Shown in pieces: positions 15,503-32,000 of a DNA stretch of 32,000 nt. The stretch lies in contig NC_017039.1 of NCBI RefSeq assembly GCF_000284455.1, forward strand, positions 1,080,001 to 1,112,000. The letters run 5' to 3'. How positions within the stretch are numbered: the stretch's first letter is position 1; each line of letters opens with the position of its first letter. Source of the stretch: Synechocystis sp. PCC 6803 substr. PCC-P. Lineage in GTDB: Bacteria; Cyanobacteriota; Cyanobacteriia; Cyanobacteriales; Microcystaceae. The notes beneath the pieces are model-generated. The model did no database searches and was not told where the DNA came from. It saw only the letters and a list, made by a program, of their open reading frames with translations. The position numbers and the translations under genes were made by a program.

Positions 15503-16938
<1,436 letters not shown>

Positions 16939-18505: not shown

Positions 18506-19452
18506 TAGTCATTTCAATTAACGATGAGAGAATTTAATGTAAAATTATGGAGTGTACAAAATGAACAGGTTTAAACAATGGCTTACAGTTTAGATTTGAG
18601 GCAAAGAGTAGTAGCTTATATAGAAGCTGGAGGAAAAATAACTGAGGCTTCCAAGATATATAAAATAGGAAAAGCCTCGATATACAGATGGTTAAATAGA
18701 GTAGATTTAAGCCCAACAAAAGTAGAGCGTCGCCATAGGAAATTAGACTGGGAAGCTCTAAAAAAAGACGTAGAAGAAAATCCCGATGCAAGATTGATAG
18801 ACAGAGCCAAGAAATTTGGAGTGAGGCCGAGTGCCGTATATTACGCATTAAAGAAAATGAAAATAAACAGAAAAAAAAAAGAACTACGTTATCGAGAAAG
18901 AAACCGGGAGGAACGAGTTAAGTACTATAGAATGTTAAGAGAACTAATTAAGCTCTATGGTAGTCAAGCTATAGTTTACATAGATGAATCTGGATTCGAA
19001 GCAATCCAGGCTTGTATTTATGCCTGGTCAAAAAAAGGAAAAAAAGTTTATGGAGATAGACAAGGAAAAAGGGGAGTCAGAGAAAATCTAGTAGCAGGGA
19101 GAAGAAAAGGAAAAAAAGATTTGATTGCGCCGATGGTTTTTACCGGGAGTTTGAATGCAGAAGGCTTTGAAGGATGGTTAAATTTATATTTGCTATCCTC
19201 CCTCGACATTCCATCAATATTAATAATGGATAATGCTCCTATTCATCGTAAAACTGCCATTAAAGAATTGGCTAAAGAAGCAGGTCATGAAGTTCTTTTT
19301 TTGCCGAAATATTCTCCTGATTTAAATGATATTGAGCATGACTTTAGTGCCTTGAAACGAGCTAGAATGTACGCTCCTATTGACACGTCTCTTGATGAAA
19401 TTATCCGTTCTTACTGTGGCGTTTAGCGTCTCAGCTTTATTTGAAACTACTA
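18506..19452 (+). mobile_element. ISY100-type insertion sequence (IS630/Tc1-mariner superfamily), apparently intact
   Basis: 947 bp between TA dinucleotides. Imperfect terminal inverted repeats TAGTCATTTCAATTAACGATGAGA (left) and TAGTAGTTTCAAATAAAGCTGAGA (right, reverse complement), with 19 of 24 positions matching by eye. Single transposase ORF. AT-rich and free of HIP1. Confidence 0.85.
18578..19426 (+). CDS. IS630-family (ISY100) DDE transposase
   Basis: 282 aa. N-terminal HTH region, then DDE-type residues in DESG, MDNAPIH and DLNDIEHDF contexts. Confidence 0.9.
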   Translation: MAYSLDLRQRVVAYIEAGGKITEASKIYKIGKASIYRWLNRVDLSPTKVERRHRKLDWEALKKDVEENPDARLIDRAKKFGVRPSAVYYALKKMKINRKKKELRYRERNREERVKYYRMLRELIKLYGSQAIVYIDESGFEAIQACIYAWSKKGKKVYGDRQGKRGVRENLVAGRRKGKKDLIAPMVFTGSLNAEGFEGWLNLYLLSSLDIPSILIMDNAPIHRKTAIKELAKEAGHEVLFLPKYSPDLNDIEHDFSALKRARMYAPIDTSLDEIIRSYCGV

Positions 19453-19468
19453 CATTATCGGAACAACA

Positions 19469-20623
19469 TTAATCAATTTCGGACGGCCACCGTTCCTCTA
19501 GTTGACCAGCATTAACTTTGAGAATCTGGGCCGATCGCCGCCAGCGGTCATCAAAACGACTTAAATGGGTGGTGGTGATCAGGGTTTGAAAACGATCCTC
19601 AATGGCCATTAACAATTGTCCCTGGCGATCGAGGTCTAATTCCGCCAAGACATCGTCCAATAACAACAGTGGTGGTTCTCCAATAACCGTTTCAATCAAG
19701 CTCAATTCCGCCAATTTTAATGCTAGGACTAGAGTTCTTTGCTGTCCCTGGGAGCCATAGGTTCTAGCGGGAGTGTCGTCGAGGACAAACCCCACTTCGT
19801 CCCGATGGGGCCCCACCACCGTTGTCCCCAGATGTAATTCTGCCGATCGCCGTTGGGCTAATTTTTCTAAAAAAGCCTGGTGCACCACTTCCGGATCATC
19901 CCCCACCCAGGTGACATTGGGTTGATAGGTAACGGTCAGGGTTTCATTGCCACCGCTAATGCGCCCATGCCATTCCTGGGCCAAAGGAGCAAGACGGGCT
20001 AAACCCCTCGCCCGACGGCGGACTACCCTAGTGCCCATTTCCACCAACTGCTGGTCCCAGAGAGACAAAGAAGCTGTCGACTCTTCCCCCAAAGCTAGTC
20101 CCGTTTCCCATTGTTGTCGTAGGCTTTTTAGTAGAGCATTTCTTTGCTTAACAATGTGCTGGTACTGCCCCAACAGATGGGCATAGAGGGGTTCTAGCTG
20201 GGTTAACAAAGTATCTAGCCATTGACGGCGACAATCGGGCGCTCCCCGGACTAAATCCAAATCTAAACAGGAAAATTCCACCGCATTTAAACAGCCTAAA
20301 AAATCCAACTGACGACGACATTGATTTTGGTTAATGCGTAGGTTGCGCCGCCCCGATCGCCGTAGGTCAATTTCTAACTCCGCCACACTGTATTGCCTTT
20401 CCAGTAGGGCTTTAATTTGCCCATTGGCCGCCCCGTCTAGCACCAATTCCTGATCCCGACTAGTGCGATGGCTTTTGAGCGTTGCCAACAGTTCCACCGC
20501 TTCCAATAAGTTAGATTTCCCCTGGGCATTATTGCCCACCAAAATGGTTTTTTGAGCAGAAAATTCCACCTCTTCTTCGAGGTAATTGCGAAAGGCCCGT
20601 AAATAGAGTTTTTTCAGGTACAT
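19469..20623 (-). CDS. recF: DNA replication and repair protein RecF
   Basis: Walker A GNNAQGKSNLLEA, SMC-like signature GSQGQQRT, Walker B LLLLDDVLAELD. ATG at 20623 (MYLKKLYLRAFRNY) is preferred over the TTG at 20653 used in the ORF track. Confidence 0.85.
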   Translation of the reverse strand: MYLKKLYLRAFRNYLEEEVEFSAQKTILVGNNAQGKSNLLEAVELLATLKSHRTSRDQELVLDGAANGQIKALLERQYSVAELEIDLRRSGRRNLRINQNQCRRQLDFLGCLNAVEFSCLDLDLVRGAPDCRRQWLDTLLTQLEPLYAHLLGQYQHIVKQRNALLKSLRQQWETGLALGEESTASLSLWDQQLVEMGTRVVRRRARGLARLAPLAQEWHGRISGGNETLTVTYQPNVTWVGDDPEVVHQAFLEKLAQRRSAELHLGTTVVGPHRDEVGFVLDDTPARTYGSQGQQRTLVLALKLAELSLIETVIGEPPLLLLDDVLAELDLDRQGQLLMAIEDRFQTLITTTHLSRFDDRWRRSAQILKVNAGQLEERWPSEID

Positions 20624-20664
20624 TTTCCAACTAAACGGGGCAAAAATTGGCAATATTTTCTAGC

Positions 20665-29707: not shown

Positions 29708-29874
29708 AACTTAAAGCAACTGCCAGAGACGACCGCCTATAAATCAGTGGTTTGAGTCTCAATGAAGATTAGCGTTAGGATCGAAAGGATGGGAGTCTTA
29801 ACTTTCCTGCTGGATTCCCATGAGTTACATCAGCCCTTTCAGAATGAAATACATAAACTTATACAAGTCAAGCT

Positions 29875-31299
29875 TTATGATCGAGTTTCTCTAATGTTAA
29901 GCCCTTTATAGAGACTTTGATGGATATAAACAGAACCTACCGCTGGAAGCAGTAAATCTGCATCTTCACAACGAAACCTAGCAGTTCCGGCATTACCAAG
30001 CCTAACACCAATGATTGATGCATCAAAGAGACGCATCATTAGCTCTCGTGAACTGTATTTTTCGCAGAGACTTTTAGCCTTCTCTTCAAGAAGAGCGAGA
30101 AATTCATCGACGGAATCATAACGATGTTGCGTTTGTCGCAACGATTCGACAAGATCACCGAAGTAAGGGAAAAGACGACGATATTCTTGCTTAAGATCTT
30201 CCACCTTCCAGCTACTGTATCGTTCTTCAGATTCCCTAATAGTATCTTTAGACACTTCTATTGCATCACTAGCTGATCTTTTCTGGCACTCTTGAAGAAA
30301 CTGAATTACTTCTCGTGGCCTCAAGAAAGTGCGTTTTACTATGTAATTAAAAGGTGCAATACCACCACGCATATCTCCCTCCTCAAATATCTCATCAACA
30401 GATATATTATTAGGAAGTCGAGCATTGATCATATCTTTTAAAAGTTCTGGACTCCAAATTATTTCTTCTTCGATTGCTCTATGCTTATCTTTGTCATCAA
30501 ATTGAAGACCTTGATAAATATCTGACCGAAGAAAAGTAATCACATGAATACCTTTTCCTGTAGCCAATGAATATTTATCATTTATTTCTTTAGTTGCTTT
30601 AAGAAGTCCAATCATTAAACTTTTTGATACCTCTGAACCATCCCATGAGTCATCGAGGCGATCTATCGCAACTATAACACCAAGGTCATTACATACGGCA
30701 TTTATCGCGTCGAGGAGCAAATCAATAACTTGAGGCGTTAACATTTGTTGCTGCTTGTCACGTTCGAATCCAATACCAAACCCAAAAGCTTCAAGATTGA
30801 ATGCGTTCAAGCCTTTTAGTAATGTCCTTACAGTATTTGTTGGTGTTGGTGCATTCTCGCCAAAGTTATTTGTAACAAATTTACAGATACGATCTAATGC
30901 CTTCCGAGCATTTTCGTCAAGCCTTTCAGGAGACACGTCTAACAAGACTGCTGAGGCATCAACTGCAATAGTAAATTTCCAAGCATTAGTATGAGCCTGT
31001 TCTAAAAGTAAGCCTTGCTCTTGGTAATCTTTCATTGCCCCCCAAGCATATTGATCTGGTGTCATTAAGCTTACTCGAACACTTTCTTTGTAGCGTTCCG
31101 TAGCCAATCGCAAGAGTTGAGTAAAGATTGCAGACTTTCCAGCTCCCTTTCGACCAAGAAAATGGGCACTACGAAAACGAAGAGATTGGTCTACCTGTGG
31201 TGTACTAATGAAGTAGTCCGCTAACCTCCGGTCAGCTTCTGCATCAACTGTGCCAAAATCTAAATCTTTAATAGTAAGACCTTTATCGGATAATTTCAT
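29875..31299 (-). CDS. Stand-alone P-loop NTPase (STAND/ORC-like AAA; possibly the family named after Synechocystis Sll1717), function unknown
   Basis: Walker A GRKGAGKS (nt 31132-31155), Walker B VIVAIDRLDDSWDG, and a possible sensor motif VITFLRSD. The C-terminal ~200 aa are helical with no recognisable nuclease, protease or TM domain. AT-rich codon usage unlike neighbouring genes. Confidence 0.75.
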   Translation of the reverse strand: MKLSDKGLTIKDLDFGTVDAEADRRLADYFISTPQVDQSLRFRSAHFLGRKGAGKSAIFTQLLRLATERYKESVRVSLMTPDQYAWGAMKDYQEQGLLLEQAHTNAWKFTIAVDASAVLLDVSPERLDENARKALDRICKFVTNNFGENAPTPTNTVRTLLKGLNAFNLEAFGFGIGFERDKQQQMLTPQVIDLLLDAINAVCNDLGVIVAIDRLDDSWDGSEVSKSLMIGLLKATKEINDKYSLATGKGIHVITFLRSDIYQGLQFDDKDKHRAIEEEIIWSPELLKDMINARLPNNISVDEIFEEGDMRGGIAPFNYIVKRTFLRPREVIQFLQECQKRSASDAIEVSKDTIRESEERYSSWKVEDLKQEYRRLFPYFGDLVESLRQTQHRYDSVDEFLALLEEKAKSLCEKYSSRELMMRLFDASIIGVRLGNAGTARFRCEDADLLLPAVGSVYIHQSLYKGLNIRETRS

Positions 31300-31439
31300 A
31301 TTGATTTCACTGAAAAATTGAAGAATTTACTGTCTTTGTAAGTGGTGCCCGCCGCATAACGCCAAGAGTCAGAAGCAGGTCGAAGTCTATGAAAAGACAG
31401 ATCGCGGCTGCTCTCGTCTTCTACATCTTGATATTAGCT

Positions 31440-32000
31440 CTAGTCCGCGGCCCTTGAATAATAAAAGCGATCTTCAATTGGAAGAACCTCACTCCCGTCG
31501 CTGAGCGTCATTTTACGATCAGTGCAGACTCGCATAAAGTGAATGCCAAATAAGGTGAGTGAGACATGAGCCTTAAAGCTCCTATTTCCATCTTGCATAT
31601 ACCATATACTAATCCTTGCTTCTTCATCGACCGGAGTGTCATCGTATTTATGGATTATCAAGAGGCCCAGACGCTCCAAGTTGTTCAGTGCAACGCTTAT
31701 CTGAACTATATTATATTTACGGGAGTCATTAGCATATGTGAATTCATCCGGTTTTGCCATTACTCTTAAGTGCAGAAGATATAGGACGTTCAACAGTTCA
31801 GCATCGACAATATCAACTTGTTTTAAGACTTCTACAAAAGACTTTGTTGAGTTAGTGCGATCAGATTCTGTTAAAGCAGAGGCAAGTAGGTTTGCCCAGA
31901 GGGTTTGCAGGTTTTCATCATCTTCGGAAAGTGCTGCACCCAGAAGTGGAAGACCAATCCGCAGAGGAAGACTAGAGATTTCTGGATTGCCCCGTTCAAT
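31440..32000 (-). CDS. Abi-alpha / DUF4393-like protein (5' end outside the window)
   Basis: The minus-strand frame of the listed 31440..31793 ORF stays open to position 32000 by manual translation: ...IERGNPEISSLPLRIGLPLLGAALSEDDENLQTLWANLLASALTESDRTNSTKSFVEVLKQVDIVDAELLNVLYLLH... The segment LLGAALSEDDENLQTLWANLLASAL matches my memory of the conserved core of the Abi-alpha family. Confidence 0.55.
   Translation of the reverse strand: MERGNPEISSLPLRIGLPLLGAALSEDDENLQTLWANLLASALTESDRTNSTKSFVEVLKQVDIVDAELLNVLYLLHLRVMAKPDEFTYANDSRKYNIVQISVALNNLERLGLLIIHKYDDTPVDEEARISIWYMQDGNRSFKAHVSLTLFGIHFMRVCTDRKMTLSDGSEVLPIEDRFYYSRAAD

Follow-up and report, generated by a model that had tools for sequence, protein, structure and literature searches.

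Two genes that lie side by side, in the same orientation and with the same foreign-looking composition, are readily taken for one defence system. Does this hold for the pair at the end of the window, the 32,000-nucleotide (nt) stretch of Synechocystis sp. PCC 6803 substr. PCC-P that was analysed here (NC_017039.1, positions 1,080,001 to 1,112,000)? There, a complete gene for a P-loop ATPase of the Sll1717 family (29875..31299, minus strand; 474 amino acids, aa) follows a gene of the Abi-alpha family, whose 3' part of 186 codons plus stop codon lies in the window (31440..32000, minus strand). The first-pass annotation had described both genes as AT-rich and foreign and had joined them into a single candidate defence system. 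Their composition is indeed deviating, since the ATPase gene has a guanine plus cytosine (GC) content of 39.4% (27% at third codon positions, GC3) and the Abi-alpha part one of 42.8% (GC3 39%), compared with 53.2% (GC3 55-60%) in the adjoining bioB-bioY-lspA stretch. Both genes look horizontally acquired. A joint system, in contrast, was not supported. The reading that we favour, and consider reasonably probable, is a small horizontally acquired island with two independent single-gene cassettes of the anti-phage hotspot type. The Abi-alpha gene adds one more member to a family that is known but poorly understood. The ATPase appears to be the more interesting lead of the two, as a reasonable candidate for a single-gene defence ATPase in a family that has already been named.

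Co-occurrence and DNA blocks of the two genes

For the ATPase, 34 genome loci and 20 loci from IMG/VR were sampled, and for Abi-alpha 42 metagenome loci, together with individual homologue records. Hidden Markov models built from the alignments A1 and A5 were run against all open reading frames (ORFs) of 114 loci. Flanking sequence of at least 900 nt was present upstream in 51 of the 61 ATPase loci and downstream in 28 of the 51 Abi-alpha loci. Outside the near-identical Synechocystis-type loci L001 and L002, both genes were found together at none of the ATPase loci (0/61) and none of the Abi-alpha loci (0/51). The first-pass annotation had stated beforehand that a lack of co-localisation elsewhere would speak against its two-gene system, and this is what we found. 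Moreover, clustering of the neighbouring ORFs revealed no conserved partner gene for either the ATPase or Abi-alpha. Recurrent neighbours of the ATPase were limited to portal and terminase genes of P2, and those of Abi-alpha to TIR or DACNV genes at occasional loci. In most Abi-alpha relatives the downstream gene is unrelated or lies on the opposite strand.

Similarly, the two genes belong to different blocks of homologous DNA (window coordinates equal 41300 minus the L001 coordinate). The Abi-alpha block (L001 9069-9890, more weakly to ~9950) is homologous to the cyanobacterial-looking contigs L042-44, where the similarity extends over the Abi-alpha gene into the spacer and ends within it. 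The ATPase block (L001 9940-11464, corresponding to 29836..31360, minus strand; blastn against L003 and L041) comprises the gene with ~60 nt of leader and ~40 nt of trailer. It shows 86% nt identity to a Nodosilinea locus, in which the gene upstream of the ATPase is an unrelated ORF of 149 aa, and also matches a metagenomic contig. The blocks abut ~50-60 nt before the start codon of the ATPase gene, with the junction at ~31350-31410 inside the 140-nt spacer (31300..31439, minus strand), whose length the first-pass annotation had given correctly. The pair resembles two cassettes that came to lie next to each other locally. The unequal GC3 of the two genes (27% for the ATPase versus 39% for Abi-alpha) also speaks for their independence.

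Small ORFs located 5' of the ATPase gene were considered as a hidden partner and rejected. Those checked, of 85 aa in Klebsiella, of 143-149 aa and membrane-like in L003 and L004, and of 81 aa in Synechocystis, are mutually unrelated and have no family matches.

A co-transcribed and mutually dependent system, with the ATPase as NTPase sensor and Abi-alpha as effector, would nevertheless explain several features of the locus. The genes have the same orientation, the 140 nt that separate them contain no terminator-like hairpin, both are AT-rich compared with their flanks, and an effector acting in trans is conceivable for a core-only ATPase that lacks one while its relatives are fused to further domains. 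Besides, the closest Abi-alpha homologue is followed at a distance of 141 nt by a sensor-type DACNV gene, which could hint at a pairing with interchangeable sensors. We consider such a system very improbable, however, as the pairing is restricted to L001 and L002 among the loci scanned, and the genes 3' of most Abi-alpha relatives do not fit a fixed partner. ATPase homologues in P2 hotspots are the only cargo gene or occur without a conserved partner. Because the genes do not co-occur at the other loci scanned and sit on separate DNA blocks, and because AbiAlpha and the anti-phage protein DS-41 (both described below) act singly, the ATPase and Abi-alpha are not regarded as one system. Local coupling of the Synechocystis ATPase to Abi-alpha is the less likely case, and a two-gene operon of co-evolving partners is supported neither by conserved adjacency nor by a joint DNA unit.

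The Abi-alpha gene and its relatives

The Abi-alpha frame in the window comprises 186 open codons before the stop codon at 31440-31442 and runs past the window edge. It carries the motif LLGAALSEDDENLQTLWANLLASAL at residues 19-43 (31872-31946), from which the truncated gene had been assigned to Abi-alpha in the first-pass annotation. This assignment was borne out by the Pfam family Abi_alpha (PF14337, formerly DUF4393), which the truncated protein matched with 88.6 bits versus a gathering cutoff of 29 (E=7e-25, profile positions 23-196 of 196). The proposed extension beyond the window recovered the full gene, which encodes 256 aa (L001:9090-9860) and reaches the window-equivalent position 32210. 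In the WANLLA core the residues W105, A106, N107, L108 and L109 were invariant in alignments of 17 and 20 homologues, and all homologues collected had already been annotated with PF14337. The PADLOC single-gene candidate PDC-S47 was matched in part (E=2.4e-12), by the truncated query over profile positions 100-213 of 263 only and without a score threshold. Judged from the Pfam match and the conserved core, the predicted product clearly belongs to the Abi-alpha family.

The family was not first described for lactococcal abortive infection, as had been assumed. AbiAlpha is defined by EF2833 in prophage 6 of Enterococcus faecalis V583, a stand-alone gene of 272 aa that leads to premature lysis of infected cells (PMC6356687). 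It is for EF2833 in E. faecalis only that one gene has been found to suffice for an abortive-infection phenotype (PMC6356687). The Synechocystis gene shares with EF2833 the family match, the WANLLA core, a similar size (256 versus 272 aa) and relatives in prophages and islands. However, the two sequences are only distantly related, and the Synechocystis gene is part of a chromosomal islet that is free of phage genes. The action of EF2833 is characterised only as premature lysis, and the window gene is known by its sequence. By analogy with the E. faecalis protein, Abi-alpha may function as a lone abortive-infection protein that kills the infected cell or lyses it prematurely.

Members of the subfamily are cyanobacterial and proteobacterial and 40-80% identical. 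Relatives were found in a P2-like prophage of Cellvibrio and a P22-like prophage of Delftia, and further ones in an integrase island with a type III restriction-modification system and in an island with a TIR protein. In the closest homologue (80% aa identity; L042:3106-5286, also L043 and L044) the Abi-alpha gene is followed, after a gap of 141 nt, by a 420-aa gene with DACNV, which is described in Pfam as 'probable sensor domain'; in Synechocystis the ATPase takes that place after 140 nt. As far as the sequences allow a judgement, this looks like cassette swapping 3' of a conserved Abi-alpha unit. A literature search on DACNV found nothing. Two genes upstream of the L042-type Abi-alpha homologue there is a TIR_2-DUF2188 gene. 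A jackhmmer search with the Synechocystis Abi-alpha protein against the ORFs of the 34 genome loci returned only the Synechocystis copies.

The structure of Abi-alpha was modelled on P0122, a protein with 80% identity that served as a proxy. In this model (predicted local distance difference test, pLDDT, of 80) the N-terminal half is helical and the C-terminal half alpha/beta. A Foldseek comparison of the proxy model with the PDB gave nothing significant, with winged-helix proteins as weak matches (E>0.1). On the mechanism of Abi-alpha, the proxy structure appears to yield nothing new.

Sequence, fold and genomic settings of the ATPase

The ATPase gene is a complete ORF with an ATG start, and its length of 474 aa, the Walker A motif GRKGAGKS and the sequence VAIDRLDD were all confirmed as first annotated. 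Walker A spans residues 49-56 with the lysine K55 (31132..31155, minus strand), and the Walker B region VAIDRLDDSW spans residues 210-219 (30643..30672, minus strand). Walker A and VAIDRLDD (residues 210-217) are invariant in 17 aligned homologues; the invariant residues comprise G49, R50, K51, G52, G54, K55 and S56 in the former, and D213, L215, D216, D217, S218 and W219 in the Walker B region. The motif RTFLRPRE (residues 323-330; 30310..30333, minus strand), a candidate sensor-2/lid arginine region, is likewise invariant in the alignment, which contains ~150 invariant positions and thus shows strong conservation across phyla. Both ORFs, that of the ATPase and that of Abi-alpha, are intact and of full length in comparison with their homologues. 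The LDDSW sequence of Walker B is similar to the hhhhDD(V)W motif of the STAND type.

In the AlphaFold2 model of the ATPase (pLDDT 84; predicted template modelling score, pTM, 0.81) a short N-terminal segment with the invariant motif DAE(A/S)D precedes the P-loop core, which is split by a conserved helical insertion of ~125 residues (~83-200) with the invariant motifs TPDQYAW, EQAH-NAWK and FGFG. The C-terminal half is mainly helical and contains the RTFLRPRE motif and small beta-hairpins. This agrees with the helical C-terminal half without an effector domain that had been described from the sequence, as the Pfam scan of the ATPase detected no domain above threshold and no effector domain. 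The PADLOC scan gave no match, including none to Avs, and a search of the ATPase profile against PDB sequences only the trivial P-loop match to CFTR. With Foldseek, the best matches of the model were Cdc6/Orc1 (E 2e-4), BrxC, RdrA, TnsC and plant NLRs, with template modelling (TM) scores of 0.3-0.4; the top match 2qby_A (E 2e-4) had a TM-score of 0.35-0.42 and a root-mean-square deviation of 10.5, and the NLR matches were weak (E 0.07-0.08). Pfam ORC-CDC6-like was matched below threshold only, and only in relatives of the ATPase. Because of these best matches the modelled ATPase is tentatively described as an ORC/Cdc6- and STAND-like AAA+ protein outside every solved family.

BrxC of BREX, RdrA of RADAR and Avs/NLR-like proteins resemble the ATPase in their fold and in an LDDSW-like Walker B, and N-terminal effector or adaptor domains, a feature of STAND immune proteins, are present in some ATPase relatives. 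However, the window ATPase has neither sensor repeats nor an effector and falls outside the STAND definition, and the ~125-residue helical insertion in its P-loop domain distinguishes it from both ORC/Cdc6- and STAND-type ATPases. Furthermore, BrxC and RdrA function only within multi-gene systems.

Residues 15-467 of the ATPase match the complete NCBIfam profile NF047389, "P-loop ATPase, Sll1717 family" (positions 1-454 of 454), with 269.3 bits versus a cutoff of 75. RefSeq homologues in E. coli, Klebsiella, Aeromonas and others already bear this family name, which carries no function, and no paper on the Sll1717 family was found in the literature searched. The family comprises ~4,200 clusters at 50% identity (E<=1e-3; ~2,100 at E<=1e-10) from bacteria and archaea, and both the ATPase and Abi-alpha fall into PHROG families of unknown function. 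Close homologues of the ATPase (68-81% identity) include those in the P2-like prophages of Klebsiella and E. coli described below. Those in Chromatiaceae, Opitutales, Armatimonadota, Klebsiella, Aeromonas and Serratia show 70-77% identity, which across phyla indicates frequent horizontal transfer; the gene occurs in cyanobacteria, in P2 prophages of enterobacteria and in numerous further phyla, between which it has spread.

The window ATPase has the bare core architecture without extra domains. Some relatives (P0238, P0282, P0196, P0225) are fused to two N-terminal EAD7 adaptor domains, a weakly matched N-terminal CAP12/Pycsar-type TIR, a C-terminal VWA or a second P-loop domain. The fusions suggest that the ATPase module may serve conflict systems as a switch or a sensor, and they could point to outputs of the family. 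Two further forms were observed. A subgroup of ~600 aa (P0084, P0094, P0111, P0117; 50-54% identity) has a common, conserved C-terminal extension of ~120 aa (alignment A1 columns ~575-700; LP.QDLTFL...TP...) that is without Pfam annotation and is lacking in the window ATPase. A distant family member of 596 aa (~22% identity; L116:4425-6782) is encoded on conjugative plasmids of Klebsiella and Enterobacter (>100 records). It is widespread on IncF-type plasmids of Enterobacteriaceae, directly 3' of a resolvase-type recombinase gene in Tn3/IS5 contexts, and was matched by 229 plasmid records in all.

A possible link to a tested defence protein was found in NF053860, the family of the DS-41 anti-phage protein. 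It was the second-best family in all 14 Sll1717-family members tested, the window ATPase included, with 20-60 bits and E-values down to 1e-16, and one of the alignments covers positions 11-414 of the 448 in the profile. The window ATPase itself reached 32 bits in a partial alignment (E=6e-8), which at a cutoff of 370 is below membership. When the family profile was compared with the DS-41 sequence by hhalign (E 1e-3, probability 21%), Walker B, KHR and (S/R)PRE were co-linear; the IDRLDD region was paired with IDKLDE of DS-41 and the RTFLRPRE region with SPRELI. DS-41 (WP_033812887.1, 'AAA2') is a single-gene system of E. coli that cut the plaquing of several BASEL phages in the DefensePredictor study, where it was validated (PMC13092281). 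The two proteins have a similar size (502 versus 474 aa), a co-linear P-loop architecture with shared Walker A, Walker B, KHR and (S/R)PRE motifs, and are each encoded by a single gene. In contrast, their identity is very low, the helical insertion and the C-terminal region are not demonstrably equivalent, and only DS-41 has a phage-protection phenotype, while the Sll1717 family is known from sequences. On this comparison DS-41 would be a remote sister family at best, and the window ATPase is not classed as a DS-41 member.

The fusions raise the question whether the ATPase is a sensor or adaptor that needs an unlinked effector, encoded by the host or the phage, with Abi-alpha being irrelevant to it. 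EAD7, TIR-like or VWA domains in relatives are an architecture typical of effector-recruiting sensor NTPases, and the window ATPase lacks an effector domain. This explanation appears improbable to us, as core-only forms travel alone between distant phyla and reach the P2 hotspots, where the size of the cargo is tightly limited, and as DS-41, which has about the same size, acts alone in a heterologous E. coli host.

The genomic settings of the ATPase relatives were inspected locus by locus. In Klebsiella, E. coli and IMG/VR, homologues were located in P2-like prophages, where they are flanked by the replication gene gpA/DinI and by gpQ, which encodes the portal, without a conserved partner. Those from Klebsiella and IMG/VR have 68-70% aa identity to the window ATPase (70% in Klebsiella), some are the sole cargo gene there, and the E. 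coli genes show ~81% nt identity to the Klebsiella gene. In E. coli the P2-like prophage copy is present in 2 of 5426 complete genomes. The gpA-gpQ interval is an experimentally supported defence hotspot, which holds old and tin in P2 (PMC9122126), and in a follow-up study six of eight randomly chosen unknown loci of P4 hotspots were defensive (PMC13586616). The ATPase homologues thus occupy exactly the same locus as old and tin (Rousset et al. 2022); in contrast to this cargo, the Synechocystis ATPase is not prophage-borne, and the ATPase cargo gene is absent from the systems reported as tested (PMC9122126).

Other relatives are found in different contexts. One is directly followed by Thoeris ThsA/ThsB, one adjoins MNT/PemK genes of the toxin-antitoxin type, and one on a Nostoc plasmid is accompanied by HNH/NurA/DUF3696 genes. 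On a conjugative Klebsiella plasmid a relative lies beside pifC and a P-loop NTPase gene, which is probably PifA. Among 136 neighbour proteins from 47 ATPase loci, several matched PADLOC models, namely those of MADS, UvrD/NERD/GajB-like proteins, PbeA, type I and type IV restriction enzymes, ThsA and a DRT reverse transcriptase. In this listing of individual loci, homologues of the ATPase and of Abi-alpha recur in defence hotspots or beside known defence systems. Relatives of both genes lie in prophages, defence islands and plasmids.

Such settings also contain other cargo. One or both genes could be non-defence cargo of mobile elements, with roles such as element maintenance or addiction, control of replication or partition, or competition between elements, or they could be decaying passengers that are functionless in Synechocystis. 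In line with this, partition systems and toxins are present in P2 gpA-gpQ hotspots as well, in its fold the ATPase is similar to Cdc6/Orc1, which initiate replication, and to TnsC, a regulator of transposition, the distant Klebsiella-plasmid relatives lie beside a resolvase gene in Tn3-type transposon contexts, the Synechocystis island is not flanked by phage genes, and the ATPase gene (very probably sll1273) appears in the literature searched only with an intragenic NtcA peak. We regard this explanation as unlikely, because both ORFs are intact and of full length, ~150 ATPase positions are invariant across phyla, defence genes recur in the neighbourhoods, the ATPase family is remotely homologous to DS-41, Abi-alpha membership is clear, and most of the randomly chosen P4 hotspot loci mentioned above (6/8) proved defensive.

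How might the ATPase act as an independent cassette? From its motifs, predicted fold, genomic contexts and homology we propose a stand-alone nucleotide-dependent switch that would rest as an inactive monomer. Recognition of a phage component would lead to ATP binding and oligomerisation, and the oligomer would then block the infection directly and by itself. Candidate outputs are actions on phage or host nucleic acid, on replication complexes, or toxicity to the cell. Self-sufficiency is suggested because the bare core moves across phyla and into the size-limited P2 hotspots, and because DS-41 of similar size acts alone. A bolder version of this proposal is that the core-only ATPase (~475 aa, ORC/Cdc6-like AAA+ with a helical insertion and no separable effector) is self-sufficient in stopping phages and mechanistically of a new type; it would, for example, assemble on phage DNA or replication intermediates in an ATP-dependent manner. 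We regard this as possible, though doubtful.

Several points weigh against two independent defence cassettes. An anti-phage role of either gene would be deduced from its context, P2 hotspots also hold cargo unrelated to defence, for example partition systems and toxins (PMC9122126), and in 50,697 genomes of isolated phages tblastn detected no match to the ATPase. A direct output of the ATPase is speculative, as the protein has no recognisable effector, and its likeness to DS-41 is far under the family cutoff (32 versus 370 bits; hhalign probability 21%). Moreover, the Synechocystis genes are co-oriented and separated by only 140 nt, in which no terminator was predicted. As a scan of the spacer detected neither a terminator-like nor a sigma-70-like promoter site, co-transcription is possible, and with it local cooperation in Synechocystis. 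Finally, the locus samples were modest (34 genome, 20 viral and 42 metagenome loci and a few look-ups) and included many short contigs.

Surroundings of the islet and meaning for Synechocystis

The right-hand border of the AT-rich insert is a spacer of 167 nt with 40.7% GC (29708..29874, not assigned to a strand) between the convergent lspA and ATPase genes. The flanking genes were identified as BioB (Radical_SAM+BATS), BioY and LspA (Peptidase_A8). The 3.57-Mb chromosome CP129343.1 encodes an identical 474-aa protein amid the same neighbours. On the other side of the islet, Abi-alpha and a gene for an OprB-type porin flank an ORF of 81 aa (L001:8570-8815, window-equivalent ~32485-32730), which had no match in Pfam or NCBIfam and may be part of the same inserted islet.

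The islet is identical to that of L001 in the assembly SRR27213188 (L002). Beyond ~16100 in L001 (window-equivalent below ~25200), past a DUF2396 gene, the two loci diverge. L002 contains genes for ACPS, homoserine dehydrogenase and an epimerase there, and L001 DUF1824 and pyruvate kinase genes, which points to a rearrangement between strains of the Synechocystis type.

Further AT-rich segments of the window were considered as additional defence genes and rejected, since they proved to be a recF-like gene and genes for an IS630 transposase, a histidine kinase and a DUF2079 membrane protein. The IS630-family transposase gene (HTH_Tnp_IS630 + DDE_3; 18578-19426, plus strand) lies in the most AT-rich stretch of the window (~36% GC), and the recF-like SMC_N/AAA_15/AAA_23 gene (19469-20653, minus strand) adjoins it. 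Rfam detected two tRNA genes (2553-2626 and 15967-16048, both minus strand). Both are located away from the AT-rich islet and therefore provide no tRNA-linked integration site for it within the window.

From published coordinates (PMC5714215), the ATPase gene is very probably sll1273 of Synechocystis PCC 6803. As the ATPase fits sll1273, the Abi-alpha gene is probably sll1272. Under nitrogen starvation, chromatin immunoprecipitation (ChIP) sequencing of NtcA revealed an intragenic peak in sll1273 together with a mild down-regulation (log2 -0.89) (PMC5714215). The coordinates of the peak record, 1109887-1110178, correspond to ~30400-30690 of the window and lie within the ATPase gene (PMC5714215). 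A literature search for sll1272 and sll1273 returned only this NtcA peak and a computational listing of small RNA targets, neither of which informs on function.

Adjacency and a shared foreign composition are thus insufficient to call a multi-gene system, as each of the two genes described here travels alone. If it is true that the Sll1717-family ATPase defends alone, this would add a compact single-gene system of ~1.4 kb from a broad family, and a defence protein of the AAA+ type without an effector would pose a clear mechanistic question. With these two genes, which are probably sll1272 and sll1273, the model cyanobacterium Synechocystis 6803 would gain two annotated candidates for defence, which would be relevant to work on cyanophages and to strain engineering.

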